Source of the DNA: Acidobacteriota bacterium
Lineage (GTDB): Bacteria > Acidobacteriota > JBCCFW01
Direction of reading: 5' to 3'
Length of the DNA stretch: 64,000 nucleotides
Assembly: GCA_039029535.1 (NCBI GenBank)
Contig: JBCCFW010000004.1
Location: forward strand, 41,512 to 105,511
Positions 24,456-39,888 of this stretch are shown one piece after another. Both the position numbers and the translations under genes were made by a program. The notes under the pieces are model-generated. The model searched no databases. It was not told where the DNA came from and saw only the letters and a list, made by a program, of their open reading frames with translations. The stretch's first letter is position 1. Every line of letters begins with the position of its first letter.

Positions 24456-25466
24456 TCACGACGAGGTGCTGCCGATGAGGCCTCGCGTGACCTGACCGAG
24501 GAGGCTCCGTCGCTCGACCACCAGCGAGACGGTCCCCGTCATGCCCGTGGTGAGCTCCAGGCTCGCGGGCACGGGACCGAGCGACAGGTGGGCGCGGTAG
24601 TGGCCGGTCTCGTCGTCGACGCTGCTCACGGCGACGAGCGTGGCGGAGAGCGAGCCCTGGTCGAGCAGCGAGTCGGCATCGAGCCGGAGTCGGCCCTCTC
24701 CGAGCACGCGCTGGAGGAGCCCCACCTGTCGAGGCGCGATCGTCGCCGTCGCGTGGAAGACCGCGGTCGACTGGCCCTCGGCGGAGTCCGACACCAGCGC
24801 GTGCAGCAAGGTCCCCGCCGGAGCGCGGGAGCCGAAGGACAGGTGAGCGACCCGACCGGCCGTGGCCGCCGTGACGTCGAGGTGCGCGTCACCCTCGCTC
24901 ACCGCAGCATGAGGGCCGTAGCGCTCCCGCAGCAGCGCCTCGGCGCGGGCCAGCTCGAAGCCGAGGCGTCGGCGTCGAGCCTGCTGCTCGGTGCTCTCGG
25001 CCTCCAGCCAGGCGAGCTCGGCTCGTGCGGCGTGCAGGCGAGCCAGTGCTTCGGAGAGCTCGGCTGATCGAAGCCGAAGCAGCGGCTGGCCGAGGTCGAC
25101 GCGGTCTCCGATGACGACGTGTCGTGCGTCGATCACGACGTCCTCGAAGAGCGAGTAGCGGTGCTCTCCCTCCACGCGGACGAGCTCGACGGGGAGCTCG
25201 ACCGTCCAGTCGAGGGGGATGAGGGAGCCACCGGCGACCAGCGCCACGGCGAGGAGCAGGCCCAGGCGGAGGGCGACGCGTCGGGCGCCCTGCGTGACGT
25301 CGAGGAGAGGGGAGTCCTCCTCGCGGTAGAGCTCGGTCGACTGGAGCGCGGTGAGCTCTCCCTCGGGTCGGACCTCGCCCGGAGGCGGCGGCCCCTTGCG
25401 GAGTCGGTCCGTGAGATCGACGACGGTCGATCCGGTGCCGTTCGGCGGCGAGACGGGCTCAGGCAT
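24456..25466 (-). CDS. HlyD-family membrane fusion / secretion protein
   Basis: Start at the internal ATG at 25466 (MPEPVSPP...), which overlaps the ABC-transporter TGA (ATGCCTGA). TM segment followed by a coiled-coil. The ORF-track N-terminus is an out-of-frame low-complexity artefact. Confidence 0.65.
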   Translation of the reverse strand: MPEPVSPPNGTGSTVVDLTDRLRKGPPPPGEVRPEGELTALQSTELYREEDSPLLDVTQGARRVALRLGLLLAVALVAGGSLIPLDWTVELPVELVRVEGEHRYSLFEDVVIDARHVVIGDRVDLGQPLLRLRSAELSEALARLHAARAELAWLEAESTEQQARRRRLGFELARAEALLRERYGPHAAVSEGDAHLDVTAATAGRVAHLSFGSRAPAGTLLHALVSDSAEGQSTAVFHATATIAPRQVGLLQRVLGEGRLRLDADSLLDQGSLSATLVAVSSVDDETGHYRAHLSLGPVPASLELTTGMTGTVSLVVERRSLLGQVTRGLIGSTSS

Positions 25467-27657
25467 GGGCGAGATACGCGTTGGTGAGGCTGGCATAGAT
25501 GCCGTCGTGGGAGAGGAGCTGCTCGTGAGTGCCGTCCTCGACGATGCGACCGTCGTCGAGCACGACGATGCGGTCGGCCCCGCGGACCGTGGACATGCGG
25601 TGGGCGATCGTGATGATGGTGGCCTTGGGGAAGCGCTCGTGCAGCCGGGCGGTGATCCTCTGCTCCGACTCGGTGTCCAGGACGCTGGTCGCTTCATCCA
25701 GGAGGATGATCTCCGGGTCGGTGAGGAAGAGCCTTGCGAAGGCCAGCTTCAAGCGCTGCCCGCTCGACAGGTTCCTTCCACCGTCGCTGAGGACGAAGTT
25801 GAAGCCCAGGAAGTTGCGACGCAGGAAGTCGCCGAGCTCGGCGTCCTCCATCGCCTGCTCGAGCTGCTCGAGGCTGGCGTCGGGTCTCACCTGCTGGAGG
25901 TTCGAGCGGATGGTCCCGTGGAAGATGTAGATGTCCTGCGGCAGCATCACGACCGACTGCCGGAGGAGCTGGGGGTGGTACTGCCGGAGCTCCGTGTCGC
26001 CGAGGAAGATGTTGCCCTCGTACGGATGGAGCTGGAGCAGCAGCTTGGCGAGCGTCGACTTGCCCGAGCCGTTGCGGCCCACGATGGCGAGGTGGGTGCC
26101 GGCCTCGACCTCCAGGTCGACCTCGTCGAGCACGCGGTCCGCCTCCTTCTCGGAGTAGCGGAAGGAGAGCCCCTCGATCCTCAGGTCGCCGTCCGGTCGG
26201 GTCGTGCGCTGGCTGCCGACGTCGCGAAACTCCGGCTCCTGGCCGATGAGGTCGTTCAGACGCTCGAAGGTCACGCTGAGCCCCAGCAACATCAGCCAGA
26301 GGTCGCCGAGGCTTCCCGCGCGGCTCACGACCATCATGAAGATGCTCGTGAAGGCCACGTACTGTCCGATCGTGAGCTCGCCCTGGACGGTGAGGTACGC
26401 ACCGATCCAGTACACGGAAACCTGGCTCGCCACGATCAGGCCGGACTGGAGGAGCCCGAGGCGGAGCGTGGACGTCTCCAACTCCATCGTCGAGTTCAGC
26501 GAGCGCGTGAAGAGGTGTCTCCAGTTCCAGAGACGCTGTTGCTCGATCCCGAGGATCTTGACGGTGTTGATGCCGTAGAGCGTCTCGGTGAAGCTGCCCA
26601 TCGCGTGAACGTTCGAGTGAAAGACCTTGTTTTCCAGGCTCCGAAGGCGAGGCGTGAAGACTGCCGACACGATGGTGATCACCAACACGGCCGCCAGCGC
26701 CACCGTGGCGAGGAGGGGGCTGTAGAAGAAGAGGAAGGCCGAGTAGGCGACGACCAGGAGGATGTCGAGCAGGGACTCGAGCACCGCCGGTGACAAGATG
26801 CCGGAGACCGACGACGCCTCCTGCAGGCGGTTGATGAAGTCCTCCTTCGGGTGGTCGTCGAAGTAGGACTGCCGCAGCCGCACGAAGCGATCCATGACCG
26901 CTCCGAAGAACGATCGCTCGTAGCGAGCCTTGAGCTGGATCATGAGGACGTTGCGCAGGTACTTCAGCAGGAGCTGCGTCGAGTAGACGAGGACGAGACC
27001 GAGGAGGATGGCGTGCAACAGGCGCAGGTCGTCGTCGACCAGGACTCGGTCGATGATGCCCTGGGTCATGACCGGGAGCCCGAGCCCCAGCAACTGCAGG
27101 ACGACAGTGGCGAGCAGGAGCTCGGCGAGGACCTTGCGAGCGGCGAGCAGGGGCGGCAGGTAGAACTCGCGGAGGAGACCCCACTTGCGACCACGTCGCT
27201 CCTCGATGAGCTCGAGCAGGTCGGGGTTGCGGAAGGCGTCCTCCGTCGGATCGACGGTGAACACGACGCCGTTCCAGCGAGCATGGAAACGATCCTTGCT
27301 CAGCTCATGCTCGCCGCTTCCCGGATCGATGAAGGTGATGGTGTCGTCGCCGACTCGCGTGACGACGATGAAGTGATCTCCCTGGTAGTGGGCGATGAAC
27401 GGTGCCTGCAGGTCCTGCATGCCCTCCCAGGAGGCGTGGTAACCCATGGCCTCGAAGCCGAACTTCTGAACGACTTCGGCCGCGAGGTAGAGGTTGGTGC
27501 CCTGGGCGTCGACCTGCGCGAGCTCGCGCAGCAGGTCCTGCACGTTGGTCATGCCCCAGTAGCGGAAGATCATCGCCAGGCAGGTGGTCAGACACTCGGA
27601 GCCGTCCCGCTGGAGGATCACCGGTACCGAACGTCGAGGCTTGAGCTTCGGTCTCAT
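25459..27657 (-). CDS. bacteriocin/lanthipeptide-processing ABC transporter with N-terminal C39 peptidase domain (LanT-like)
   Basis: C39 peptidase motifs QRDGSECLTTCLAM and HFIVV. Six-TM domain. Walker A GRNGSGKST, signature LSSGQRLK and Walker B ILLDEATS. ATGA overlap with the LanB gene. Confidence 0.9.
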   Translation of the reverse strand: MRPKLKPRRSVPVILQRDGSECLTTCLAMIFRYWGMTNVQDLLRELAQVDAQGTNLYLAAEVVQKFGFEAMGYHASWEGMQDLQAPFIAHYQGDHFIVVTRVGDDTITFIDPGSGEHELSKDRFHARWNGVVFTVDPTEDAFRNPDLLELIEERRGRKWGLLREFYLPPLLAARKVLAELLLATVVLQLLGLGLPVMTQGIIDRVLVDDDLRLLHAILLGLVLVYSTQLLLKYLRNVLMIQLKARYERSFFGAVMDRFVRLRQSYFDDHPKEDFINRLQEASSVSGILSPAVLESLLDILLVVAYSAFLFFYSPLLATVALAAVLVITIVSAVFTPRLRSLENKVFHSNVHAMGSFTETLYGINTVKILGIEQQRLWNWRHLFTRSLNSTMELETSTLRLGLLQSGLIVASQVSVYWIGAYLTVQGELTIGQYVAFTSIFMMVVSRAGSLGDLWLMLLGLSVTFERLNDLIGQEPEFRDVGSQRTTRPDGDLRIEGLSFRYSEKEADRVLDEVDLEVEAGTHLAIVGRNGSGKSTLAKLLLQLHPYEGNIFLGDTELRQYHPQLLRQSVVMLPQDIYIFHGTIRSNLQQVRPDASLEQLEQAMEDAELGDFLRRNFLGFNFVLSDGGRNLSSGQRLKLAFARLFLTDPEIILLDEATSVLDTESEQRITARLHERFPKATIITIAHRMSTVRGADRIVVLDDGRIVEDGTHEQLLSHDGIYASLTNAYLAHA

Positions 27658-30600
27658 GGTGCGGGTACTTCGGCGGTGACGAGTGGACGTGGTGCCTGCT
27701 CTGCGCGTGAGCGGGCGGCTCGGGAGACGTGGAGTCGATCGAGGAAGTCGTGCAAGACCAACTCGTGGGCACGCTCATGCGAGCGGACGAGACGGTTCAC
27801 GAACATGTGGAGGTAACTGACCGCCAGCTCGGTCATGGACAGGTGGCCGGCCTGCTCGTGCGCTCGCAGGCTCGGCACGATCTCGGCGAGGGCGCGCGAC
27901 CTCTCCTGGAACACGGCCATCGCATCCTTGCCCACGGTGAGCTCGGGTGCATCCAGCGCGTGCTGGACGTGCCGGCGCTCCGAGCGGTAGCGGGCCCCGA
28001 GGGGCACCCGCAACGCCCGCTCACCACCGTGCTCTCGGAGGTAACCGGCCCGCATCGAGCGGATGACGTGGTGGCGGTCCTCGATGTCAGGTAGGAGGTC
28101 TTCGAGGAGTTGCTGGATGCCGACGAGAGCGAGGCGCCAGCGCAGGTCGGCTCCCGAGCTTCCGCGGGAGAGGGCGACGAGACGCAGCACGGCGTCCGAG
28201 TCGGCATGGAAGAGCCGTTCGGACAGCTCCATCCCGTGTCGGCCACCGTAGCGTTCGAGCTCACGCTCATAGGTGTCGAGCTGCACGCGCCAGGCCAGCC
28301 CGTTCCGCAGCGGCTCGCGGAGGGCGGCGTGGAGCTGAGGGACGACGTCCGTGAGCAGGCGTCCCGGCTCACCGTGGACGCGGAGACGCACGGTGGGGTC
28401 GGGGTCCTGGAGTCGGATGAAGAACCAGCGGTCCACGACACCGTCATGCATCCAGCGTTCGACCAGAGGTCGGACGACGTCGCAGAGGAGGTCGTCGGCG
28501 CTCGCCGGCCCCGTGAAGATCCGTGCGTAGAGCCACTCGGAACCGGGAGCGAAGGTCCGCTCGCAGCCCGACAGCTCGACGCGGGGGAGCGAGGGCTCGG
28601 GTGTCGGTTCGCGACGCAGTGTCATCGGTACGAAGAGCTCGTGAACGAAGTCACCCTCCGGTCCGGTGACGGGGAGGTCGTCGAAGCCCCCCCAGTGCTC
28701 GCGAAGAACGGCTTCGTCTTCGCGCAGTAGCAAGTCGAGCAAGCTGTCGACCATCAGCTCGTTGTCGAGATCGACGAGCAGCTCGGAGTCACCACTGCCG
28801 AAGACCACGAAGCGCGGCCAGGCGTGTCGGCGACGCCACTTCGTCAACAGTCGCGGTCGCTCGTCGGGTGCGGACGTCGAGAGTCGCCGCAGGTCGTGTT
28901 GGCTCAGGCGCCAGCGAGCGAGGGAGAGAACGGTGTTCCCGAGGCACACGCGGGGCAGCGATGGCTGGGCCTCGAGCGAGCCCCAGTTCCACTGGAGCCA
29001 GCCGGCGACTCCCTGGAACTGCAGGTCGCTGAGGAAGCGATAGACACCGAGCGTGTGCGAGTCGGCAGAGTGCGCCGTGGTCAATCGAGGGACGACTTCC
29101 TTTCCGAAACGTGCCGACCGCAGGACCACGCGGTCGTCGACGACGCTCACGAGCAGGTCATCGAGCGGAATCTGATCCTGGACCGGGGCCCCGGAACGCC
29201 CGAGGAAGGGAATCTCGTGCTTCCGAAACTGCGGGCGGTGCACGACGTTGCCGTCGCGTCCCTCGGGCACGTGAACGACCTCGGCGAAGGCGGCGTCGGG
29301 GCGGAGAGCCTCCTCGCGTGCGAGGTGCTCGGCGACGTGCTCTCGCAGCGTTGCATCCCCCGTGCAGAATCGACCGAGGAGCTGGGCTCCGGACGGGCCG
29401 ACGGCCCCCTCGAACAGGAACCGGGCGTGGTCGTCCTGCCCCGAGGGAGCGAGCCGGATGCCTGCGGTGAGCGCGTCGGGGAAGGGCGGGCTCTCGGGTC
29501 GACGCAAGGCGGCGACGTCCGCGTCGCTCAGCACGAGCTCGTCCGCTCCGGAGCGTCGCCAGCGTTCGAGGATCTCGTGCAGGACGATGTCACGCGAGCC
29601 CATCTCGAGCGCCGCTCGCCCCGTGCCCGCTTCGTCATCGAGAGGCAGCCCGGCCAGTAGCGGCGAACCCGAGCTGCTCGTGGAGGAGGAGTTGCCGTAG
29701 CCGATGCCGGCCTCTTCGTCGAGCGCCTGGACCAGGGGGATCTCTCGCTCTCCGTAGCGCTCGACGAACGCGTCCCGGAAGCGGCCTAGCTCGCGATCGT
29801 GATCGAAGTCGGAGGCACCACGCAGGAACTCGAGGACGTCGGCAAGCTGGCTCGTGACGTTTTCGGAGAGCGTGGCCTCAGGTGCCGACTTGATGAGCTC
29901 GAGGTGGACGAGCGCTCGGCCGGGCGTGGGCACCGAGAGCGTTTCCAGCGTGGGCGTTAGACGGGACAGGAGCAGGCCCGGGGACGGCGTGCCGTCCCTG
30001 CCGAGCTCCCCCAGCGCGTGGTTGAGGTCGACGAGGGCCTCGTGCCAGCGTCCGCCGCCCGCGTGTTCACCGACCTGAGCGGTCAGCTCATCGAGTGAGC
30101 TAGGACCGGTCAAGCAAGGACGGAGGTCCGGGACGAGGAGCTGCTCCCTCGCCAGCTCCTCGACGTACTCTTCCGCTTCCTCCAGGTCGACGTCGGCCTC
30201 CCGTGCGAGCGAGCGCGCGAGTCGTTCTCGGGTCTCACCACCGCGCGCGTGCTCGAGCGCGGCGTCGAGGAACGGGGACGGCTCGAAACGGACGAGATGA
30301 TGGGCGCGGTTGCGGTCGCTGCCCTGGGCCTGAATGACACCGAGCTTGCCCGCGACGCGATGGAGGGTGGAGCTCGGCCGCAGCTTCGTCGTGGACACGA
30401 GCTCTGGAGCAGTGGCGAGCGCCTCGGCGATCTCCTGCACGACTGCTGCGTCGAGACGGACGTGGAGACGATGACGCGACGTCTCCGCAAGACGCAGGTT
30501 CGTTTCATCGCCGACGCGGACGACGGCGTGACCCGCGAAGAGTCCGAAGGGTGTCGCCCGCGAGGTCATGCGGGTCAGGTAGCGGACCAGCGAGCGCTCC

Positions 30601-30857
30601 ACGGCGCGACCCTGACGACTGTCCGGAGCGCGACGCCAACCTGGCAGCTCCGCGTGCAGGCTCGGCGAGGCAAGTGCGATCGCCGTGTCCACGTCTTCGC
30701 GATCGATGAACGCCGCGAGTCGATCTCGGAGCTCGCTTCGGTCGGATGAAGGAGCGTCGCCGCACCACTCCCTGAGCTCCCGGAGCGCATGTGCTGGCGT
30801 CCTCAGCACGGCGAAGCCCGAGCTTTCGAGGACGGGAGAGCGTTCCGAGGTCTTCAT
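27654..30857 (-). CDS. class I lanthipeptide dehydratase (LanB-like, glutamylation plus elimination domains)
   Basis: 1067 aa, the typical LanB size, with the N-terminal motif TPFGLFAG. ATGA overlap with the LanC gene. Confidence 0.8.
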   Translation of the reverse strand: MKTSERSPVLESSGFAVLRTPAHALRELREWCGDAPSSDRSELRDRLAAFIDREDVDTAIALASPSLHAELPGWRRAPDSRQGRAVERSLVRYLTRMTSRATPFGLFAGHAVVRVGDETNLRLAETSRHRLHVRLDAAVVQEIAEALATAPELVSTTKLRPSSTLHRVAGKLGVIQAQGSDRNRAHHLVRFEPSPFLDAALEHARGGETRERLARSLAREADVDLEEAEEYVEELAREQLLVPDLRPCLTGPSSLDELTAQVGEHAGGGRWHEALVDLNHALGELGRDGTPSPGLLLSRLTPTLETLSVPTPGRALVHLELIKSAPEATLSENVTSQLADVLEFLRGASDFDHDRELGRFRDAFVERYGEREIPLVQALDEEAGIGYGNSSSTSSSGSPLLAGLPLDDEAGTGRAALEMGSRDIVLHEILERWRRSGADELVLSDADVAALRRPESPPFPDALTAGIRLAPSGQDDHARFLFEGAVGPSGAQLLGRFCTGDATLREHVAEHLAREEALRPDAAFAEVVHVPEGRDGNVVHRPQFRKHEIPFLGRSGAPVQDQIPLDDLLVSVVDDRVVLRSARFGKEVVPRLTTAHSADSHTLGVYRFLSDLQFQGVAGWLQWNWGSLEAQPSLPRVCLGNTVLSLARWRLSQHDLRRLSTSAPDERPRLLTKWRRRHAWPRFVVFGSGDSELLVDLDNELMVDSLLDLLLREDEAVLREHWGGFDDLPVTGPEGDFVHELFVPMTLRREPTPEPSLPRVELSGCERTFAPGSEWLYARIFTGPASADDLLCDVVRPLVERWMHDGVVDRWFFIRLQDPDPTVRLRVHGEPGRLLTDVVPQLHAALREPLRNGLAWRVQLDTYERELERYGGRHGMELSERLFHADSDAVLRLVALSRGSSGADLRWRLALVGIQQLLEDLLPDIEDRHHVIRSMRAGYLREHGGERALRVPLGARYRSERRHVQHALDAPELTVGKDAMAVFQERSRALAEIVPSLRAHEQAGHLSMTELAVSYLHMFVNRLVRSHERAHELVLHDFLDRLHVSRAARSRAEQAPRPLVTAEVPAP

Positions 30858-32173
30858 GACGTCGCCTCAGCGCACGGAGAAGACAGGAGCAGGATCGCGT
30901 CCCAGGCTGGTGCGATCGAAGTCGTCGCCGCGAGAAGGGCGAGCGCGATGCCGGAGGCTCCGTTGAGGAAGCCGCTGTCGTCGTGCCATGCGAGTCGGCC
31001 GTCATCGCCTCGGTCCCAGGCGCGGTAGCCAGCAACGCCGGTTCCCGGGTGCTGCATGTCGAGTGCGAGCTCGAACCAGCGTCGTGCCGCGTCGGCCATC
31101 ACGTCGTCGCCCGTTGCATGCCAGAGGCGGTTGAACACGTGGCCGATGCCGGAAGCACCGTGGCACAGGGCGGCGTCCTCCACGCCGCTGCTCTCGCGGG
31201 TCCGCGCTGCCGCGCGTCGAGCGATCACACGCGCCTCGAGCTCCCAGTCCTGCCGGCCCGTGGCGCGCGCTGCCTGGAGCAGGACCACGCTGATGCCGAG
31301 CTCGCCGTGGCACCAGGCGAGACGAGCTGGGAGCTCATCCCTGCCGTCTCCCATGTCGTAGGGGAACACGGCGTCGGCATCGTCTTCGAGCTTGCGAGCG
31401 AGCAACCAGCTCACCGCTCCGTCGAGCAGGACGAGGGCACGGTCGCGCTCGATGTCGGCACGCACCAGCGCGCTCAGCAGGGCGGCGATTCCGGCGACGC
31501 CGTGGGCGACTCCGACACAATAGGTACCGCCGTTCGCGACGGCGTGTTCTGATGGCACCAGGTCGTTGCTCGTGAACCAGGCGAGGCCGTCGCCATGCTC
31601 CACGGCGAGCGTCTCGAGGTGGCCGAGCATCGAGCGCAGGCACGAGAACGCGCTCTCTCGAGGAAGTCGCGACAGCGCGTGGGCGCCGAAGCCGACGAGG
31701 CCTTCCACGAGGTCGTGATGATGGGGCCATGTCTCTCGCGAGAGATGTTCCGCCAGCGCGAGGTCGACGACCTCGCCGGGATCCGGAATGTCATCGAGAC
31801 CCGAGACGCGGTGAGCGAGCTGGCTCATGACGTGATCGCGGGCCCAGGCAACACCGACGAAGCCACAGTAGAGGGAGGCGGACATGGGGGTCTCGGCGAG
31901 CGCCACCACCGAACGCTCGAGTCTCGTCGCGACGGCATCTCCTGCCACCAGGCCGGGTCGAGCTGCCGAGAGATACGCGAGGGTGAGCGCGCGACCTGCA
32001 TTGCCGTCGGCCAGTGATTCGTCATCGGGACGCAATGTCGGCTCGGACAGGAGGGCGTCTGCGAGGTCACCGAGGGCGACGTTGGCTCGGACGGCGAGGT
32101 CGCCCTCCAGGACGGGAGTCCACGTGGCTGGAGTCGGGGTCGTTCGCGTTCGGCTAGCGCTGAGTGAGGTCAT
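30854..32173 (-). CDS. lanthipeptide cyclase (LanC-like)
   Basis: LanC zinc-site motifs VAHGVAGIAALL, AWCHGELG and ALCHGASGIGHV. Start assigned to the internal ATG at 32173, which is preceded by AGGAGA at 7 nt. The ATG at 32209 abuts the hairpin. Confidence 0.85.
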   Translation of the reverse strand: MTSLSASRTRTTPTPATWTPVLEGDLAVRANVALGDLADALLSEPTLRPDDESLADGNAGRALTLAYLSAARPGLVAGDAVATRLERSVVALAETPMSASLYCGFVGVAWARDHVMSQLAHRVSGLDDIPDPGEVVDLALAEHLSRETWPHHHDLVEGLVGFGAHALSRLPRESAFSCLRSMLGHLETLAVEHGDGLAWFTSNDLVPSEHAVANGGTYCVGVAHGVAGIAALLSALVRADIERDRALVLLDGAVSWLLARKLEDDADAVFPYDMGDGRDELPARLAWCHGELGISVVLLQAARATGRQDWELEARVIARRAAARTRESSGVEDAALCHGASGIGHVFNRLWHATGDDVMADAARRWFELALDMQHPGTGVAGYRAWDRGDDGRLAWHDDSGFLNGASGIALALLAATTSIAPAWDAILLLSSPCAEATS

Positions 32174-32212
32174 GCCCGGTCTCCTGGTTGGTCGGGGTGA
32201 GTGGTGCATGGA

Positions 32213-32243
32213 GCGTCCGGACCGGCATCGTCGGTCCGGACGC
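32213..32243 (-). terminator. perfect 12-bp stem-loop (GCGTCCGGACCG-N7-CGGTCCGGACGC) between precursor A and lanC; probable attenuator or processing hairpin
   Basis: Perfect inverted repeat read directly. No U-tract follows, so partial termination or transcript stabilisation is more likely than full termination. Confidence 0.5.
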
Positions 32244-32259
32244 GTCCACCGCGTTCGGA

Positions 32260-32460
32260 CTAGAGCCCGAAGTCCTCGCCGGTCTCGGCCTGGCGTGCGC
32301 TACCGCATCCCCGCTTCTTGCACTTCGTGCAGCCACAGGTGCTCTTGCGCTTGCTCTTCGGGACCGCCACGCCGCCCTGCACGTCCTGCAGCTCGTCGGC
32401 GTCGAGCTGGCGGAGGGTGTCCTTGTTCAGCACGAGCTTCTTCACGTTGTTCTTGGTCAT
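32260..32460 (-). CDS. RiPP precursor peptide A (double-glycine leader; polycationic Cys/Ser/Thr-rich core)
   Basis: 66 aa: MTKNNVKKLVLNKDTLRQLDADELQDVQGG / VAVPKSKRKSTCGCTKCKKRGCGSARQAETGEDFGL. ATG at 32460 preceded by AGAGGAAG. Leader has hydrophobic residues at -4, -7, -12, -15 and ends in GG. Confidence 0.85.
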   Translation of the reverse strand: MTKNNVKKLVLNKDTLRQLDADELQDVQGGVAVPKSKRKSTCGCTKCKKRGCGSARQAETGEDFGL

Positions 32461-32550
32461 GGTCAGGCTTCCTCTCATTGATTGATTCGGTCTTCGGTAG
32501 GCACGGCCGACTGAGTGCGGGTGGTGGTGCGCGTGAGCGGCCGTCGTCTC

Positions 32551-32579
32551 CCTGTACAGCTCCTCGTGCGGGACCTGAC
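32551..32579 (-). promoter_or_regulatory. conserved cis motif GTCAG-N15-CTGTACAGG, copy upstream of precursor A (about 90 nt from the ATG)
   Basis: One of four copies with identical 15-nt spacing (also 32949-32977, 36365-36393, 38731-38759). Confidence 0.5.
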
Positions 32580-32640
32580 ACGCCACCAAGCTAGTCCCGC
32601 TCGTCTCCTCGTCCTGGGAGGAGTGAGCGGAGACGCAACG

Positions 32641-32665
32641 CTCGGACCGCGGCCGCCGGTCCGAG
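32641..32665 (-). terminator. stem-loop CTCGGACCG-N7-CGGTCCGAG immediately downstream of precursor B
   Basis: Perfect 9-bp stem. Shares the CGGACCG...CGGTCCG core with the hairpin after precursor A. Confidence 0.45.
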
Positions 32666-32684
32666 CGCCACCGAGCTCACTCGA

Positions 32685-32864
32685 TCAGGCGCCGCCGCGG
32701 CAGAACCGCGACTTGCCCTTCTGGCAGCTGCAGGTCGACTTCCGCTTGGTCCCCTTGCGCTTCGGGACCGCCTCGCCTCCCTGCACGTCCTGCAGGTCGT
32801 CGGCGTCGAGCTGGCGGAGGGTGTCCTTGTTCAGGCTGAGCTTCTTCACGTCGTTGTTGCTCAT
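32685..32864 (-). CDS. RiPP precursor peptide B (paralog of A)
   Basis: 59 aa: MSNNDVKKLSLNKDTLRQLDADDLQDVQGG / EAVPKRKGTKRKSTCSCQKGKSRFCRGGA. ATG at 32864 preceded by GAAGGAA. Leader DNA is ~90% identical to precursor A while the cores diverge. Confidence 0.85.
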   Translation of the reverse strand: MSNNDVKKLSLNKDTLRQLDADDLQDVQGGEAVPKRKGTKRKSTCSCQKGKSRFCRGGA

Positions 32865-32948
32865 GATCAGTTCCTTCTGAGTGGATTGGCATTGCTGTGT
32901 TGGGGACGACGACCCACGACGGGTGCGCGGACCATCGGCCGTCACCCC

Positions 32949-32977
32949 CCTGTACAGTCAGCCGTTCGGAACCTGAC
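32949..32977 (-). promoter_or_regulatory. conserved cis motif GTCAG-N15-CTGTACAGG, copy upstream of precursor B (about 84 nt from the ATG)
   Basis: See 32551-32579. Confidence 0.5.
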
Positions 32978-32986
32978 GCAGAGTTG

Positions 32987-34354
32987 TCAGGGCGTGACCG
33001 TCGCTCGGTGCTGTCCGCTTCGTGTCGCTGGCTGATCGAGGAAGCAACGAAGGAAGTACGGAGCACCATCGCGCAGCTCCCAGCGCGACGTTGGCACGCA
33101 GCGCTTCAGCTCTCGCCAGCGGCCGATGGCGAGATGCAGCGGTGCCAGCCACTCGGCGAGACGGAGGGTCTCGGCCAACTCCTCCGGTGTCGCGAACCCT
33201 CGCCAAGGCCCCAGGTAGGCTGCAAGCACTCGCGCTCGCAACTCCGGCGGCTCGCCATCGAGCAGGCCGGTGAAGGGGGTGAGGAAAGGATGGCTGAGCG
33301 TCGCGTCGGTCCAGTCGAGGATCGCGGGCTGACCATCGCGCTCGCAGAGATTGCCCAGATGAAAGTCGCCGTGCTCGAGCCCGCTGGGTCCGAGGAGTGC
33401 CAGGCGCCTACAAGCGTCGACGAGGTCTCCGCGGAGAGACGCGAACACGTCGAGCTCGGTTGCGGTGAGCCCGAATCGACCGAAGGTGACGGTCTCGGTT
33501 TCGTGCAGCAGTGAGTCGACTTGCTCTGGGAGTAGGTCGATGGCGGCTTCCGGCAGCCTGAGCGTGCGGAGCTCGTGTTCGTTCTCCAGGAGCGCGCGTT
33601 GCATCGTCGCGAGCGTGGCGGCCGCCTGGCAGGCGGCGTCTGTTCGAGAGAGTGTCGAGACGAGCGGATCGCCGAGCGAGCGTGTCAAGAACCAACCCCG
33701 GGATCGGTCATGGGCGATCAGCTCGGGAACGCGCCCGGGGCAGCGTGCGGCGAGGCAGCGGAGGAGAGCGGCCTCGCGTGTCGAGCTTGGCCCGACCATC
33801 TTGAGGTACGTGGTGCCGGCGTCGGTCTCCAACATGACGACGGCACCACCGGAGTCGGACTTGAGCGACTGAGCCTCGAGCACCGGCCGTTCCAGAGCGA
33901 CCTCGGCCCAGTCGATGGCCTCGTCCAGCCAACCTCGTCGCTGCCACGGCGCGAGGGTGACCGCTTCTCGCTCCGCCTCTTGGAGGCATTGACTCACGAC
34001 TGCGACGTGAGTTTCGTCGGCGAGATCCGCTCGAGCCAGCTCCTCCTCGGCCCACCATCGACTCTCGGCGGTGGCTCCGGTGCGGTGCCCGACGACGTGG
34101 TACACGTGGAACCGTTCGCCGGTCTGCAAGAACTCCGTTCCGGCTGCCACGACCTCCCGTGAGAACTGAGAGCGGACGCCGTGCCGTACCAGAAGCCAGT
34201 CCGTGACGTCCTGGACCTCGGGCTCGTCGTCGTTGTCGAACTCCACGGCAGGAAGGGTCCAGCCCTCACCGCTTCGGACGAGCAAGACCCTTGGCAGCGT
34301 GTCGTGGAGCAGGAGTGAGCAGAGTCGGGTGCGCCTTGCTCGCGGGCTACTCAC
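32987..34354 (-). CDS. aminoglycoside-phosphotransferase (APH)-family kinase with N-terminal ~150-aa extension
   Basis: Brenner catalytic motif HGDFHLGNL and downstream ILDWTDA (Mg-binding D). GTG start 13 nt after the JmjC stop. Confidence 0.7.
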   Translation of the reverse strand: MSSPRARRTRLCSLLLHDTLPRVLLVRSGEGWTLPAVEFDNDDEPEVQDVTDWLLVRHGVRSQFSREVVAAGTEFLQTGERFHVYHVVGHRTGATAESRWWAEEELARADLADETHVAVVSQCLQEAEREAVTLAPWQRRGWLDEAIDWAEVALERPVLEAQSLKSDSGGAVVMLETDAGTTYLKMVGPSSTREAALLRCLAARCPGRVPELIAHDRSRGWFLTRSLGDPLVSTLSRTDAACQAAATLATMQRALLENEHELRTLRLPEAAIDLLPEQVDSLLHETETVTFGRFGLTATELDVFASLRGDLVDACRRLALLGPSGLEHGDFHLGNLCERDGQPAILDWTDATLSHPFLTPFTGLLDGEPPELRARVLAAYLGPWRGFATPEELAETLRLAEWLAPLHLAIGRWRELKRCVPTSRWELRDGAPYFLRCFLDQPATRSGQHRATVTP

Positions 34355-34367
34355 GACGCGATCCCGT

Positions 34368-35558
34368 TCAGTGAACCTGCTGGCCGGCGTCTCGCTGGAG
34401 CGCGCCTTCCTTCAGCAGGTAGGCGAGGGTGAGCTCGACGAGATCCGGCGCGACGCTCGAGCACGCCGCGCGGGCGTCCTGAGCGGTGAAGGCGCTCGGG
34501 CGGTCGACGAGCCACTGCACCAACGGGAGCAGCTCGGTGTCGACCTCGATCTCCGCCCCCGCGTTCGGACGCCTGACACGGAGCTTCCAGTTGCTTCCTC
34601 GAACGCCCTCGTCCCGCAGCGACTTCGACGCGTCTGCCGGCCAGTGGAAGCGCTCGCCCGAGACGCTGGCGCTCTGCAGCAGTGACTCGGCGTCGAGCCC
34701 ATCGACCACCCGAGCGAGATCGGGAAGCAAGGTGGCGAGCTCGCGCGCGAGCCGTGCCCGGGAGCGCTCGTCTCCGGCGAGTCCGAGGGGGTAGGCCCGC
34801 CACTCCGCCAGGTTTCCGAGGCGGCGGTCGAGCTCCTCGAGCACGACGTTCTTCCAGGTCGGAGGTTGCACGGTGAAGTTGAGCGCGAAGGACTCACCGG
34901 CGACACCGGTCTCGTGCCAGACCCCGCGAGGGAGGAACATGACGCTTCCCTCCCTCAGCTCGACGGTCTCGGAGTTGCGTGGCATCCGACGAGGGAGCGG
35001 CCGACGTGCGTGCGGTGGGCCGTGGTCGTCCGTGGCCTTCGCGTGGTAGCTCTCGGTCGGGTTCACGACGTGGTGATTCGGCGCGAGACGCCAGGTCTTG
35101 GTTCCCCTGAGCTGCACGTTGAAGTTCACGTCGAAGTCGTAGTGCATCGGCACGCCCAGGCTGCGCTTCGAGGCAAATGCCTCGATGGAGACGTGGTCTG
35201 GATGGACTCCGAGGTCGGCGGCGAGCTCGGCCCGGGGGGAGCGCAGCTCGGGCACCGCGTTCTCGACGTTCGTGATGTAGAGCGTGTCGCCGCGCTCGTA
35301 GAGGTCGCGAGCGGTCGCGGCAGGGACCTCGGTCTGGAATCCCTTGTCGCCGAAGATGGTCACGGGCTTGCGGAGTCTTCCGAGCAGGACTCCGAGGTCG
35401 CGCATGGCGGGTAGGGTCGCGAGCAACCCGAGGCGGTCGACGGCGCCGTGGCCCACGTGACTGACTTCGGGCCAGTGCTGCCGGAGGAAGTCACGCTTGG
35501 GCATGCCGAAGAGGGTCCGCAGTCCGAGCTTCTTGTCAGTCGAGCCGTCTCGTCTCAT
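34368..35558 (-). CDS. JmjC/cupin-4 family Fe(II)/2-oxoglutarate-dependent hydroxylase
   Basis: HxD...H facial triad context (VPMHYDFDVNFNVQLRGTKTWRL ... FLPRGVWHET). Start at ATG 35558 with a GGAGAAG SD. Confidence 0.65.
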   Translation of the reverse strand: MRRDGSTDKKLGLRTLFGMPKRDFLRQHWPEVSHVGHGAVDRLGLLATLPAMRDLGVLLGRLRKPVTIFGDKGFQTEVPAATARDLYERGDTLYITNVENAVPELRSPRAELAADLGVHPDHVSIEAFASKRSLGVPMHYDFDVNFNVQLRGTKTWRLAPNHHVVNPTESYHAKATDDHGPPHARRPLPRRMPRNSETVELREGSVMFLPRGVWHETGVAGESFALNFTVQPPTWKNVVLEELDRRLGNLAEWRAYPLGLAGDERSRARLARELATLLPDLARVVDGLDAESLLQSASVSGERFHWPADASKSLRDEGVRGSNWKLRVRRPNAGAEIEVDTELLPLVQWLVDRPSAFTAQDARAACSSVAPDLVELTLAYLLKEGALQRDAGQQVH

Positions 35559-35589
35559 GTCTCTTCTCCGTCGTGTGGTTCGTGGCGCT

Positions 35590-36321
35590 TCAGGACGCGA
35601 TGTCGGATTGGTCGAGGTGGATGACGCCGGCACGCGAGGCTGCGTGGCGACCGAGGTCCCGGCGGAGCTCGATGGGGTCGAAGGCGGAGCTCTGGCGACC
35701 GTCTCGCATGCCGCGAGGCCGCCGGTCCCACCAGTTGACGAGGAAGGTCACGCGGATGGAGCCGGCGACGTCACCGGGGTAGATCGCGTGATAGAGATGA
35801 CCCGGGAACACGGTGTAGTGATTCGAGCGGGGGAGCACGGCGACGCCGCGTGTCGGGCTGGGCGGCGAGAGCGTCTTGCCAGAGGGGTCACAGCCTTGAT
35901 CGACGATGAGCGTCGGGCCGCCGTTGCGACCCAGGTAGAACACGGACGCGACGAGCGGGTGCACCATCCGTCCCGTGTCTTCGAAGAGCTGTTCGTCCTT
36001 GTCGAAGTGAAAGCTCTTTCCGTCGGTCGTGTCTCGAACCTGGAACCACCACTCCGCTCCGATGCAACTCGGTCCCGGCCGCGCCAGCCGTCGAAGCCGT
36101 CGAATGGCGTGCTCGGGCAGGGTCGACGGTGCGCGGTCGAGCGGGTACCAACCACCCGCCCGTGAGAGCTCGTTCCGCGCGCCCCGGCGGAGGGTGCGAC
36201 GGACGTGCTCGGCGAAGCGGCGATACAGGGTCGACGGCAGCGCCGAGCGGAAGCAGCGCGTGCTCGTCACGTCGGCTCGGTGACGGGAGCGGGGCTTTTC
36301 GGCGAGGGCTCGTGACGACAT
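35590..36321 (-). CDS. putative Fe(II)/2-oxoglutarate oxygenase (prolyl-4-hydroxylase-like fold)
   Basis: HFDKDE (HxD), ~55 aa later HYTVFPGHLYH, then IRVTF (RxS/T-like). ATG 36321 with a GGAG SD. Confidence 0.45.
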   Translation of the reverse strand: MSSRALAEKPRSRHRADVTSTRCFRSALPSTLYRRFAEHVRRTLRRGARNELSRAGGWYPLDRAPSTLPEHAIRRLRRLARPGPSCIGAEWWFQVRDTTDGKSFHFDKDEQLFEDTGRMVHPLVASVFYLGRNGGPTLIVDQGCDPSGKTLSPPSPTRGVAVLPRSNHYTVFPGHLYHAIYPGDVAGSIRVTFLVNWWDRRPRGMRDGRQSSAFDPIELRRDLGRHAASRAGVIHLDQSDIAS

Positions 36322-36364
36322 GGCGAACTCCGTTGGCGAGCCAGGGATGGCTCGTCGGTAGTTG

Positions 36365-36393
36365 CCTGTACAGCGCAGCGGTCCAGCTCTGAC
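36365..36393 (-). promoter_or_regulatory. conserved cis motif GTCAG-N15-CTGTACAGG, copy upstream of the oxygenase/JmjC/kinase unit (about 43 nt from the ATG)
   Basis: See 32551-32579. Confidence 0.5.
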
Positions 36394-36402
36394 ATCGGGC
36401 GG

Positions 36403-38673
36403 TCAAGCCGACGGAGCGATGGGCATGAGCAACGCTTCGTCCCAGGTGGGCTCGTCGAGGCTGACGGCCGAGAGCAACCCGAGAACGACGCCCGAGCGTC
36501 CATCGAGCAGGCCGTTGCCGCTCAGACGTGGAGGCGTGTCGTCGGTGGGCAGGGCGAGGGTCACGGCGTGGTCGAGCCACGTTCGCGCTGCCTGCTCGAG
36601 TGAGGGGTGACCGAGGGCTCGATGCAGGCGATTGAGGGCCTGGGCGACGCCGATGGCTCCGTGGCAGGCAGAGGCCGTGTCGATGCCGGCCGACTCCGCC
36701 GAACGAGTGGCGGCGTGGAGCGCGATGTCGAGGGCGAGAATCTCCCAGCTCGACTCTCCGATCGAGCGAGCAGCCGAGAGCAGTGCGAGCGCGATCCCGA
36801 GGTCTCCCGAACACCACGATGGGCGCGACGGGGTCGGTGTCGCCCAGCCGACGAATGACGGGAATCGAGACGCCGAGCCCGGAGGAAGCTCCCGGTCGAG
36901 GAGCCACTCGATGCTCTCGAACAACAGCTCCCGTGCGGAGCCCGGTGGCTCGTCGAGCGCGCAGGCCCGGGAGAGCAGTGCGACGACGCCCGCCATCCCG
37001 TGCAGCACGCCGAGGTCGCGACGTCCCCCGCGGAAGACATGAGGTGCCTCGGGTGCGTGGCGCATGAGCGCGAGAGACCAGTCCCGCGAGCCGTTCACGA
37101 GCGAGGCCTGGTCGAGCCGCTCGATCACGTCCTCAATGAGGCTTCGTGCCGACGCACGTGACCGGCGCTCGAGGGCATGAACGCCGATCCCGACGAGCCC
37201 GCCGCGGAGATCCAACCGCCCGGTCCAAGCCTGTGAGGCGAGCGTGTCCGCGAGGGTGGCGTCGACGTCCTCCAGGCCGTCGGCTTCGTGCAGGCTCGCT
37301 TCCGAGAACCGCGAGGCGACCCACGCGACACCGGTGAAGCCGTCGTGGAGACCGATGCCCAGCGGACGCTCGGCGACTGCTTCGAGCGCGACATCGAGCC
37401 ATCGCGACGCCAGGTCGTCGTGAGCCGAGTCGATGCCGGCGCGCGCCAGCTCGAGATGGCAGAGCGCACGGCCGGCCGCACCGGTCGCCAGGGAAGCGTC
37501 GACGGACCCGGCGTCGACCGAGACGTCGGGCTCGGAGACCAGCTCGTCGGACAAGCGGGCGATCGCGTCCCAGGTCGTCTCTGCTTCCTGGCCGACGAGG
37601 AGTGGTTGCCACCCTGAGACGGGAGAGGGGCTCATCGCAGCCGGGGATGGCACGACGTCGAGCCGGGCTGCGCCGTCGCTTGGGCCTCTCGCCGTCGGTT
37701 CGAGCTCGAGCACGTGGAAGGCCCGGCAGGCGATCGGCTCGGCGCCCAGCCGCTCTGCAAGACGGAGGGTGTGTCGGTAACCGGAGAGGTGGCAGTTGGT
37801 GTCGAACCACGTGCGGGTCGCGCCTTGCTCCGCCGCACGCTCGGCGACCGCCGAAAGGAGGAGCGCGTGAATTCCCGTCCTCCTCATGTCCGGCAGGATC
37901 TCCTCGTACTCGGCGTGAACGTGCGGCCCCTTCCGGAACGCGAGCAGCACGCCGACGGCGCGGTCGTTCACGCGTGCGACGACCGAGAGGTCGCGGAGCG
38001 CGCGGTAGTCCTCGCTCAGGAGCCAGGTGCGGAAGTCGTCGCCCTTCCGGCCCAGCACGACGTGAAACAGCGACTCGAGCGAGGCGTCGGGGTCGTCCGG
38101 GAGTGGGCCGAGGCTCAGGCCGTCCGGGAGCGTTCGCCGACGGGCGATGCGCTCGCACAGCGTCGCGACGTGGGCACGGAAGTCTCCGAGGTCCACGTCG
38201 AAGCTGGCTTGCTCGAGGTCGCGGGAGAAGCCCTGCTCACGGAGGAAGGCGACGGCTCCGGGCTCCGTCGGCTGCGTCACTTCGAGAGACGTGACTCCGG
38301 CGGCCCGACCGTCCTCGCGCAGCCGCTCGAGGAGGATGCTGCCGACACCGCGCCGACGGGCGCCCTCGGCGACACGCAGCAACAGGGGCACGCGCTCGCC
38401 GACGTCGCCCCAGTAGCGAACACCGCGCGCCGCGGCGCCGACCGGTCGGCCCCCTGCTTCCGCGATGAGCAGGCCCGGCGCCCACGGGCCCAGCGGTCCG
38501 AGGTGCTCCGCGAGTTGGGCCCAGTCGGGTCGTTCCTCGAAGAGCTCCGGCAGGAGCTCTCGGAGAACGTCGGAATCGGAGCCGGTGGCTTGCCGGACTC
38601 GAATCCCCGGTTCGGCCGGTGGGATCGAGTCCGACCACGTGGTCGCTGCCTGCGTCTCGGACCTGCCCTGCAT
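36403..38673 (-). CDS. fusion protein: tandem GNAT acetyltransferase-like domains plus C-terminal LanC-like cyclase domain
   Basis: N-terminal ~330 aa with GNAT-like segments (RRRGVGSILLERL). C-terminal LanC motifs GVLHGMAGVVALL, SWCSGDLG and SACHGAIG. ATG 38673 preceded by GGAGGAAC. Confidence 0.75.
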   Translation of the reverse strand: MQGRSETQAATTWSDSIPPAEPGIRVRQATGSDSDVLRELLPELFEERPDWAQLAEHLGPLGPWAPGLLIAEAGGRPVGAAARGVRYWGDVGERVPLLLRVAEGARRRGVGSILLERLREDGRAAGVTSLEVTQPTEPGAVAFLREQGFSRDLEQASFDVDLGDFRAHVATLCERIARRRTLPDGLSLGPLPDDPDASLESLFHVVLGRKGDDFRTWLLSEDYRALRDLSVVARVNDRAVGVLLAFRKGPHVHAEYEEILPDMRRTGIHALLLSAVAERAAEQGATRTWFDTNCHLSGYRHTLRLAERLGAEPIACRAFHVLELEPTARGPSDGAARLDVVPSPAAMSPSPVSGWQPLLVGQEAETTWDAIARLSDELVSEPDVSVDAGSVDASLATGAAGRALCHLELARAGIDSAHDDLASRWLDVALEAVAERPLGIGLHDGFTGVAWVASRFSEASLHEADGLEDVDATLADTLASQAWTGRLDLRGGLVGIGVHALERRSRASARSLIEDVIERLDQASLVNGSRDWSLALMRHAPEAPHVFRGGRRDLGVLHGMAGVVALLSRACALDEPPGSARELLFESIEWLLDRELPPGSASRFPSFVGWATPTPSRPSWCSGDLGIALALLSAARSIGESSWEILALDIALHAATRSAESAGIDTASACHGAIGVAQALNRLHRALGHPSLEQAARTWLDHAVTLALPTDDTPPRLSGNGLLDGRSGVVLGLLSAVSLDEPTWDEALLMPIAPSA

Positions 38674-38730
38674 GGTTCCTCCGTCGGGAGCAGCCGCGCC
38701 AGGACGGAGCCCGGCGTTCGTCTCGCAGCG

Positions 38731-38759
38731 TCAGGACAGTGCAGGGCCAAGAACCTGAC
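38731..38759 (-). promoter_or_regulatory. conserved cis motif variant GTCAG-N15-CTGTCCTGA upstream of the GNAT-LanC gene (about 57 nt from the ATG)
   Basis: Same 15-nt spacing, and its GTCAGGTTC matches copy B. The 3' block is degenerate (CTGTCCTGA vs CTGTACAGG). Confidence 0.4.
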
Positions 38760-39117
38760 TCCAGCGTCGCGGATCCGAAATCCGCGTGCGGCACGTTCCT
38801 CTCGGAATCGTGACCACCCTCTCGGCCGGCTGACCGCGACCAAACGACGCGCGGCAATCCCGCTCAGAGGGGAAAATTCAGCCGTCTCAGCCCTTCCTGA
38901 ATTGCTGATTCACCAAATTCCAACTCTCGCTTGACCGGTCGGCTGGGTGAGCGCAATTTGTTTAGAAATTCAGTCAGGAAGGTTCAGGGGCCTGGGGCTC
39001 ACGGGGTGTTGCCAGCATCCCGACACGGACGACCCCCAACGCCGGGGGTCGTCCTGCGTCTCATGCGGACTCCCGCCCGTCGTGAGCACGCAGGATTCCG
39101 GGTCTCGAACGCAGAAA

Positions 39118-39165
39118 GACGAAAAGGGCGTGGAGTCGCCAACTCCACGCCCTTTTCATTTTTCG
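39118..39165 (-). terminator. Rho-independent terminator downstream of the Nif11-type precursor gene (bidirectional)
   Basis: 14-bp GC-rich stem AAAAGGGCGTGGAG / CTCCACGCCCTTTT with 7-nt loop. Flanked by T-tracts on both strands (TTTTCATTTTT on plus; UUUUCGUCUUUC on minus). Confidence 0.75.
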
Positions 39166-39213
39166 ATCGGCTGGTCAGCCGTTGCTCGCCTCAACGGGCG
39201 GGCAACGAGAGGA

Positions 39214-39708
39214 CTAGTTCATCCACTTGTCGAGCCAACCGGTGTCGATGCTGACCGAACCGGAGGCCGAGCCGCCGACGGTGCCGGGCTTCGTGCCGCT
39301 GACGCCGGTGTTGTTGCGGTTGGCCGCCTGGCCGGGGGCCGAGCCGCCGCCGCCCATGCCGCTGCCGACACCCATGGTGTTGCCGGCCGAGCGACGACGA
39401 ACCGCGTCGTAGACGGCGGAGGCGTCGATGGTGCCGCCACGGATGTTGCCGACCGTGCCGCCCACGCCGCCGGCGACCTGCTCGAGCATGTCGTCGGAGA
39501 GCTCTTCCGCGCTGGCCATGCGGGCCTTCAGGGCCTCACGGAGACCGGACGCGTCCTCGGCCGAGAAGGCGAAACCGTGCTTGCCAGCGACCTCGGCGAC
39601 GGAGGTGTCGACGTCCGCCGCCTCCTCGAGGGTGCGGTTCAGCTCATCCCGCAGGCCTTCGTCCTGACAGGCTTTGTTGAAGAACTCCAGGGCCTTTTCC
39701 GTGCTCAT
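39214..39708 (-). CDS. Nif11-type leader RiPP precursor peptide with Cys-free Gly/Ser/Thr-rich core
   Basis: 164 aa. Leader MSTEKALEFFNKACQDEGLRDELNRTLEEAADVDTSVAEVAGKHGFAFSAEDASGLREALKARMASAEELSDDMLEQVAGG matches the Nif11 leader family (ends LSDDMLEQVAGG). Core GTVGNIRGGTIDASAVYDAVRRRSAGNTMGVGSGMGGGGSAPGQAANRNNTGVSGTKPGTVGGSASGSVSIDTGWLDKWMN. SD GGAGGAAG. Confidence 0.8.
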   Translation of the reverse strand: MSTEKALEFFNKACQDEGLRDELNRTLEEAADVDTSVAEVAGKHGFAFSAEDASGLREALKARMASAEELSDDMLEQVAGGVGGTVGNIRGGTIDASAVYDAVRRRSAGNTMGVGSGMGGGGSAPGQAANRNNTGVSGTKPGTVGGSASGSVSIDTGWLDKWMN

Positions 39709-39888
39709 CGCGCTTCCTCCGCGGCGTGTTCCTTGGGTGGTTCGTAAACCGTGAACCAGGAGAGTACACGCTCTTCGTCACGCTGAAAAGACCTGGTCTC
39801 CAGAACGTCGTTCTTGACCGAAATCGACCACCTAGGCACCCTGAGACGGTCCTGAAGCGCCTCGAACGGGGGTCCCCTGCGCACCGGA

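Follow-up and report, generated by a model that had tools for sequence, protein, structure and literature searches.

A repeated two-part motif in a class I lanthipeptide cluster

The DNA analyzed here, referred to as the window, is a stretch of 64,000 nucleotides (nt) of the 112-kb contig JBCCFW010000004.1 (assembly GCA_039029535.1, positions 41,512 to 105,511), from the metagenome-assembled genome of an uncultured Acidobacteriota bacterium (locus tags AAF533_*, run SRR22824298); its G+C content is 69%. With Pfam and NCBIfam, a class I lanthipeptide cluster was recognized on the minus strand, from approximately 24.4 to 38.7 kilobases (kb) of the window, including genes for two precursor peptides (A and B), an open reading frame (ORF) of 243 amino acids (aa) and a fusion protein, GNAT-LanC. 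Upstream of each of these four genes lies one copy of a two-part motif, GTCAG-N15-CTGT[A/C]C, and this motif is a genuine cis element, specific to the cluster. The four copies are the following:

32551-32579, minus strand: motif copy A, GTCAGGTCCCGCACGAGGAGCTGTACAGG; 3' end 90 nt before the ATG of precursor A (32460)
32949-32977, minus strand: motif copy B, GTCAGGTTCCGAACGGCTGACTGTACAGG; 3' end 84 nt before the ATG of precursor B (32864)
36365-36393, minus strand: motif copy C, GTCAGAGCTGGACCGCTGCGCTGTACAGG; 3' end 43 nt before the ATG of the 243-aa ORF (36321)
38731-38759, minus strand: motif copy D, GTCAGGTTCTTGGCCCTGCACTGTCCTGA; 3' end 57 nt before the ATG of GNAT-LanC (38673)

When both strands of the window were scanned, GTCAG-N15-CTGT[A/C]C was found only at these four sites, all on the minus (coding) strand and all intergenic. 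In dinucleotide shuffles, the exact pattern GTCAG-N15-CTGTMC occurred 0.12 times on average, and none of 100 shuffles reached the four copies observed. A preliminary description, made from the sequence letters without database searches, had reported four copies at these coordinates and on this strand, with a constant 15-nt spacing and at about 43-90 nt from the start codons; all of this was confirmed, the measured distances being 90, 84, 43 and 57 nt. A 41-nt weight matrix built from the four sites gave them scores of 34-43 bits, while the runner-up in the window reached 14.9 bits.

A test free of hindsight was also performed, in which all words of the form 5-mer/N8-21/4-mer were enumerated in the four 150-nt upstream regions and compared with 3000 Markov-1 random sets. 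The sole word common to all four regions was GTCAG-N15-CTGT, and no random set (0/3000) shared any word of this form across four regions. Copies A and B are not fully independent, because precursors A and B are paralogous, a duplicated gene pair with 77% protein identity; a 5-N-9 word common to two unrelated upstream regions was obtained in 5 of the 3000 Markov-1 sets.

Conservation across the four copies is confined to the two blocks, the 15-nt spacer between them being variable. The same holds within the paralogous pair, where the blocks of A and B are intact and the spacer and flanks have diverged, indicating selection on the blocks. All four copies face their downstream gene, in one orientation, and a Shine-Dalgarno sequence precedes each of the four ATGs. 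The 3' block reads CTGTACAGG in copies A, B and C and CTGTCCTGA in copy D. In the first three it holds an 8-base-pair (bp) palindrome, CTGTACAG, beyond which the symmetry stops, and the motif as a whole is asymmetric; in copy D the palindrome is broken. The papers retrieved in a literature search for CTGTACAG were all eukaryotic and unrelated.

Transcription units downstream of the motif

The position of the four copies is best seen against the genes and hairpins of the cluster, listed here in the direction of transcription:

36403-38673, minus strand: unit 1, GNAT-GNAT-LanC fusion protein, 756 aa (Pfam, NCBIfam)
35590-36321, minus strand: unit 2 (32987-36321, minus strand), first gene, 243-aa ORF without a family match
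34368-35633, minus strand: unit 2, JmjC/cupin protein (Pfam/NCBIfam)
32987-34354, minus strand: unit 2, APH-like kinase (Pfam/NCBIfam)
32685-32864, minus strand: unit 3, 59-aa precursor B, whose class I lanthipeptide leader ends in GG
32635-32671 and 32594-32634, minus strand: two stable hairpins 3' of precursor B, without a U-tract
32300-32460, minus strand: unit 4, first gene, precursor A, 53 aa
32208-32249, minus strand: attenuator-like hairpin between precursor A and LanC, in a gap without a motif copy
30854-32209 (alternative start 32173), minus strand: unit 4, LanC
27654-30857, minus strand: unit 4, LanB
25459-27774, minus strand: unit 4, C39-peptidase ABC exporter LanT
24456 to ~25460, minus strand: unit 4, weakly HlyD-like protein

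The genes of unit 2 overlap or are 13 nt apart, and every intergenic gap of the cluster has a motif copy, except for the hairpin gap between precursor A and LanC. The statement that the motif precedes each transcription unit is correct for four units (GNAT-LanC; 243-aa ORF/JmjC/kinase; precursor B; precursor A) but too broad for the genes LanC-LanB-LanT, which have no copy of their own and follow precursor A after the hairpin, and for a Nif11-leader gene upstream of the cluster, for which a degenerate copy, differing in its spacer, is the most that can be claimed. The name oxygenase, given earlier to the 243-aa ORF, has no support from Pfam or NCBIfam, where the protein has no family match, and goes back solely to an HxD...H pattern read from the translation.

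Copies B (gap 32978-32986) and C (gap 36394-36402) both begin exactly 9 nt past the preceding stop codon, with no terminator between; this offset is identical in the two (the preceding gene is the kinase for B and GNAT-LanC for C). Copy A is placed just downstream of the two hairpins that come after precursor B, a pair with a folding energy of -62 kcal/mol (z = -3.0).

Some features of the encoded proteins deserve mention. GNAT-LanC, with two GNAT acetyltransferase-like domains and a LanC cyclase domain, is a second LanC beside the stand-alone LanC at 30854-32209; a genome-contig search found no relative of it, and a database of 5.8 billion proteins contained none but itself. Both core peptides (32300-32864, minus strand) are short, very rich in Lys/Arg and contain three Cys; they are found together with a JmjC_2-type oxygenase and an APH-like kinase, a combination that points to an unusual modification set for a class I lanthipeptide. 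The 243-aa ORF has few homologues; they lie beside an Acetyltransf_6 protein (locus L062), beside a C39-ABC exporter with HlyD (L063) and beside a JmjC_2 protein and a 54-aa ORF (L064), which suggests that the ORF may represent an uncharacterised peptide-tailoring family.

The motif in related loci and metagenomes

To the statement that the motif is restricted to the cluster we can add that it was found only here within the 64-kb window and 64 related loci. These loci of other bacteria, none of which has the motif, include 57 whose precursor leaders are related (the majority from Thermoanaerobaculia and Holophagae), 3 LanB loci and 3 with homologues of the 243-aa ORF; the nearest LanB relatives have 44% identity. 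The regions upstream of the precursors in related loci appear heterogeneous, some being sigma-70-like and one sigma-54-like. A sigma-54-like element, TGGTAC-N5-CTGCA, lies at ~1230-1250 of L064, a related tailoring locus, upstream of the 54-aa precursor-like ORF, and related clusters thus seem to use quite different promoter types.

In metagenomes, a scan with the strict pattern of copies A and B gave no matches. The general 15-base pattern gave at least 120 matches. Each of the first 120 listed stood alone (median GC 0.50), and not one of these was accompanied by lanthipeptide genes or by a second copy; they are chance matches. What is special in the window is therefore the clustering of the motif and not the word itself.

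A possible promoter function

Co-regulation is the natural reading of a motif arranged in this way. As to mechanism, the reading that we favor, with a probability of roughly 0.45, is that the four copies are promoters for an ECF (extracytoplasmic function)-like alternative sigma factor encoded elsewhere, which would co-express the precursors and the tailoring enzymes; both the promoter nature and the class of the factor are inferred here. For such a factor, GTCAG(G) would be the -35 element and (C)TGT(A/C) the -10 element, transcription would start roughly 6-10 nt downstream of TGTAC, and the gene of the factor, or of any other reader of the motif, would lie outside the cluster. The promoter of copy D (P_D) would serve GNAT-LanC, P_C the 243-aa ORF with JmjC and the kinase, P_B precursor B, and P_A precursor A, with attenuated read-through of the hairpin into LanC-LanB-LanT. 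This four-unit map is the most economical one.

Taking into consideration the data above, several observations argue for promoters: (i) invariant blocks with a variable 15-nt spacer are the pattern of a -35/-10 pair; (ii) copy A follows two strong hairpins, after which a new transcription start is needed; (iii) copy C lies only 43 nt from its ATG and leaves no space for a separate downstream promoter; (iv) the general ECF layout, with two short blocks, a fixed spacer of ~15-18 nt and a single orientation upstream of the gene, is present in all four copies. It had been stated at the outset that the motif matches neither sigma-70 nor sigma-54, and we agree. A sigma-70-like promoter scan of 32000-39800 gave 0 sites, and a housekeeping sigma-70 promoter (TTGACA-N16-18-TATAAT, with A2 and T6 in the -10 element) was rejected on the observation that TACAGG and TCCTGA lack the final T, copy D lacking the A as well. 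A sigma-54 promoter (GG-N10-GC; TGGCAC-N5-TTGC) was rejected by inspection, no GC being found 10 nt past the GG of GTCAGG in the four copies. That the motif matches no typical ECF consensus is correct in the letters but not in the architecture, which is that of an ECF promoter (compare MibX, ECF41 and sigma-AntA below).

A number of findings weigh on the other side. The canonical ECF signatures AAC (-35) and CGT (-10) are absent, the blocks being GTCAG(G) and CTGT(A/C)C, and the 3' block, 9 nt long in three copies, exceeds the usual ECF -10 element. No sigma, anti-sigma or other regulator gene was found in the cluster or within ~11 kb of it (Pfam; jackhmmer with three ECF queries); the same tools detected no ORF of the sigma-70 family anywhere in the window, although the cognate sigma (and anti-sigma) gene of an ECF promoter would be expected nearby, usually with the motif before it, and the only regulators of the window, a GntR-family protein and a PilZ-receiver protein, are ~11 kb away among housekeeping genes. 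The idea of a regulator hidden among the unannotated proteins of the cluster was discarded as well: the 243-aa ORF is oxygenase-like in its HxD...H pattern, the 430-aa ORF is weakly HlyD-like and a 164-aa ORF is a Nif11-leader peptide. The motif lacks conservation in other organisms, as seen with the 64 related loci, and near related clusters ECF genes are scarce (5/61 loci). Finally, with copies B and C starting 9 nt past a stop codon and no terminator between, read-through alone could express the genes downstream.

Comparison with known regulatory elements

A parallel in layout is provided by the promoters of MibX, an ECF sigma factor of the microbisporicin cluster, where GAACC-N15-GCTAC stands before 5/6 operons, 8-10 nt upstream of the transcription starts (PMC4973701). 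Like the motif described here, they have a 5-mer/N15/5-mer architecture repeated before several operons of one class I lantibiotic cluster, and they serve the coordinated control of tailoring, export and regulatory genes. However, the motif has no AAC, and TGTAC stands in place of GCTAC; the mib cluster has its own sigma/anti-sigma pair and a precursor operon that is not MibX-dependent, while the present cluster has no sigma gene close by and bears the motif before both of its precursor genes; and the host of MibX belongs to the Actinomycetota, not to the Acidobacteriota.

Closest in sequence are the target promoters of ECF41, TGTCACA-N16±1-CGTC/TGTT/TGTC (PMC3426412), which have GTCA of the upstream block and TGT/xGTC of the downstream block in common with it. 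When the motif is read as nGTCAGG-N15-TGT(A/C), its spacer is at the lower limit of 16±1. The match is partial, since the -35 block ends in GG here and in CA there, and TGTA is present in three of the copies. Acidobacteria are among the bacteria with ECF41 sigma factors. The known targets of these factors are single COE genes (carboxymuconolactone decarboxylase, oxidoreductase or epimerase) beside the sigma gene and not biosynthetic clusters. At the present locus neither an ECF41 nor a COE gene was found, and the downstream genes encode tailoring enzymes and the precursors of the lanthipeptides.

From sigma-AntA (PMC3933326) it is known that both AAC and CGT may be missing from ECF promoters of biosynthetic clusters. 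In the antimycin cluster, this factor has a pathway-specific pair of alternative-sigma promoters, with near-identical -35/-10 elements before two operons; the comparison covers this description of the promoters. The sigma-AntA gene lies inside its own cluster, in a Streptomyces host. Given the ECF-promoter layout of the motif and this known case without AAC and CGT, the unusual sigma factor first proposed overstates its strangeness. By analogy with the three systems, the motif may work like such promoters, but the analogy does not place it in any of those regulons.

A different parallel is offered by bacteriocin operons. The LytTR-type boxes of AgrA, ComE and PlnC are paired 9-bp direct repeats with a 12-13 bp spacer, located upstream of a recognizable -10 element, and they recur before the precursor, export and modification operons of double-glycine-leader peptides. 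The motif resembles them in having two similar short blocks ~21-23 bp apart, and its repeat period of 22-23 bp would suit such a box; it differs in the sequence of the repeat, in that no downstream -10 was found and in that the window has no LytTR or histidine kinase gene.

Alternative explanations

If the motif were not the promoter itself but the site of a transcription factor, activator or repressor, its blocks would be two similar half-sites about two helical turns apart, bound by a response regulator or a LuxR/NarL-type protein on (T)GTCAGG and TGTACAGG, 22-23 bp apart on the same helix face; in another variant, a dimer would sit on the CTGTACAG palindrome. We consider such a site a real possibility, second to the promoters in probability. 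The blocks are indeed alike (GT-CAGG versus GTACAGG) and partially complementary (GTCAG versus CTG-T-AC), their spacing recalls the paired 9-bp repeats of LytTR regulators of bacteriocin operons, and both the 8-bp palindrome in 3/4 copies and a conserved 9-nt block, long for a -10 element, would fit this reading. On the other side, no recognizable -10/-35 lies downstream of the motif or overlaps it, copy C being only 43 nt before its ATG; the palindrome is limited to 8 bp and broken in copy D, the strict single orientation is not required of a symmetric operator, and neither the cluster nor its flanks have a regulator gene. A symmetric repressor operator, with a dyad of ~14-20 bp that overlaps a promoter, was rejected, as just the 8-bp palindrome, in 3/4 copies, is present in an asymmetric motif.

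The motif might also act in RNA, as a processing or stabilizing signal that cuts a long polycistronic transcript into enzyme and precursor messages. Copies B and C, at 9 nt past a stop without a terminator, are probably transcribed by read-through, and GUCAG can pair with CUG-U-AC; yet the consensus RNA fold of the four sites amounts to -2.5 kcal/mol, which is negligible, the five block-to-block pairs are invariant and so give no evidence of covariation, and Rfam covariance models had no match to the motif sites up to E = 1. Blocks at a constant distance, with a variable spacer and without a helix to support them, are what is typically seen where a protein recognizes DNA, and copy D stands before the first gene and behind a terminator (39121-39157), where possibly no upstream transcript exists; an RNA signal is thus unlikely. 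Lower still we rate a functionless motif, left by duplication or similar by chance. The duplicated precursor pair, to which copies A and B belong (77% protein identity), and a decayed look-alike 243 nt upstream of copy D would fit a relic, but copies C and D precede unrelated genes, chance is excluded by the statistics of the shuffles and random sets, and the intact blocks of A and B between diverged spacers and flanks speak for selection on the blocks.

Significance of the motif

[quoted passage not shown] Taken in full, this proposal is doubtful. Biosynthetic clusters with one regulatory motif shared by their operons are familiar, and the element is real but of an ordinary type; the unusual thing is the cluster controlled, not its control element. 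Should the motif be a promoter, the transcription units of this unusual lanthipeptide cluster, from a bacterium of the Acidobacteriota that is uncultured, would be mapped in full, and there would be four short sequences to replace, or one factor to supply, if the pathway is to be switched on in a heterologous host. A further promoter recognized outside the canonical ECF consensus would also be added, in a phylum about whose promoters, to our knowledge, almost nothing is known.

The region upstream of copy D

Upstream of the cluster, the following features were found:

39121-39157: strong bidirectional terminator hairpin, after the Nif11-leader gene
39214-39708, minus strand: Nif11-leader peptide gene, 164 aa
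39764-39786, minus strand: candidate degenerate fifth motif copy, TCAG-N14-TGTAC, its spacer shortened by 2 nt, located 55 nt before the Nif11-leader gene

The relaxed pattern TCAG-N14-TGTAC is expected ~5 times per window and ~0.006 times in the 147-nt gap where it lies; it is not significant alone, and with such an expectation per window the candidate fifth copy is only suggestive. In the 164-aa Nif11-leader protein, a tail rich in Gly/Ser and free of Cys comes after a double-glycine site (…EQVAGG); the C39-peptidase exporter may have this protein as an extra substrate.

Closer to copy D, at 38974-39002 (minus strand) and 243 nt upstream of it, stands GTGAG-N15-CCTTCCTGA, which is identical to copy D at 19/29 positions and scores 3.8 bits with the matrix; this look-alike is either a decayed duplicate of copy D or chance. 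An AT-richer stretch at 38870-38990 contains three CTGAATTT-like words. Directly upstream of copy D, at ~38766-38784 (minus strand), lies a 19-bp perfect inverted repeat, CGCGGAT-TTCGG-ATCCGCG, which would sit at about -45 to -65 if copy D were a promoter and could be an additional regulator site for the first unit.

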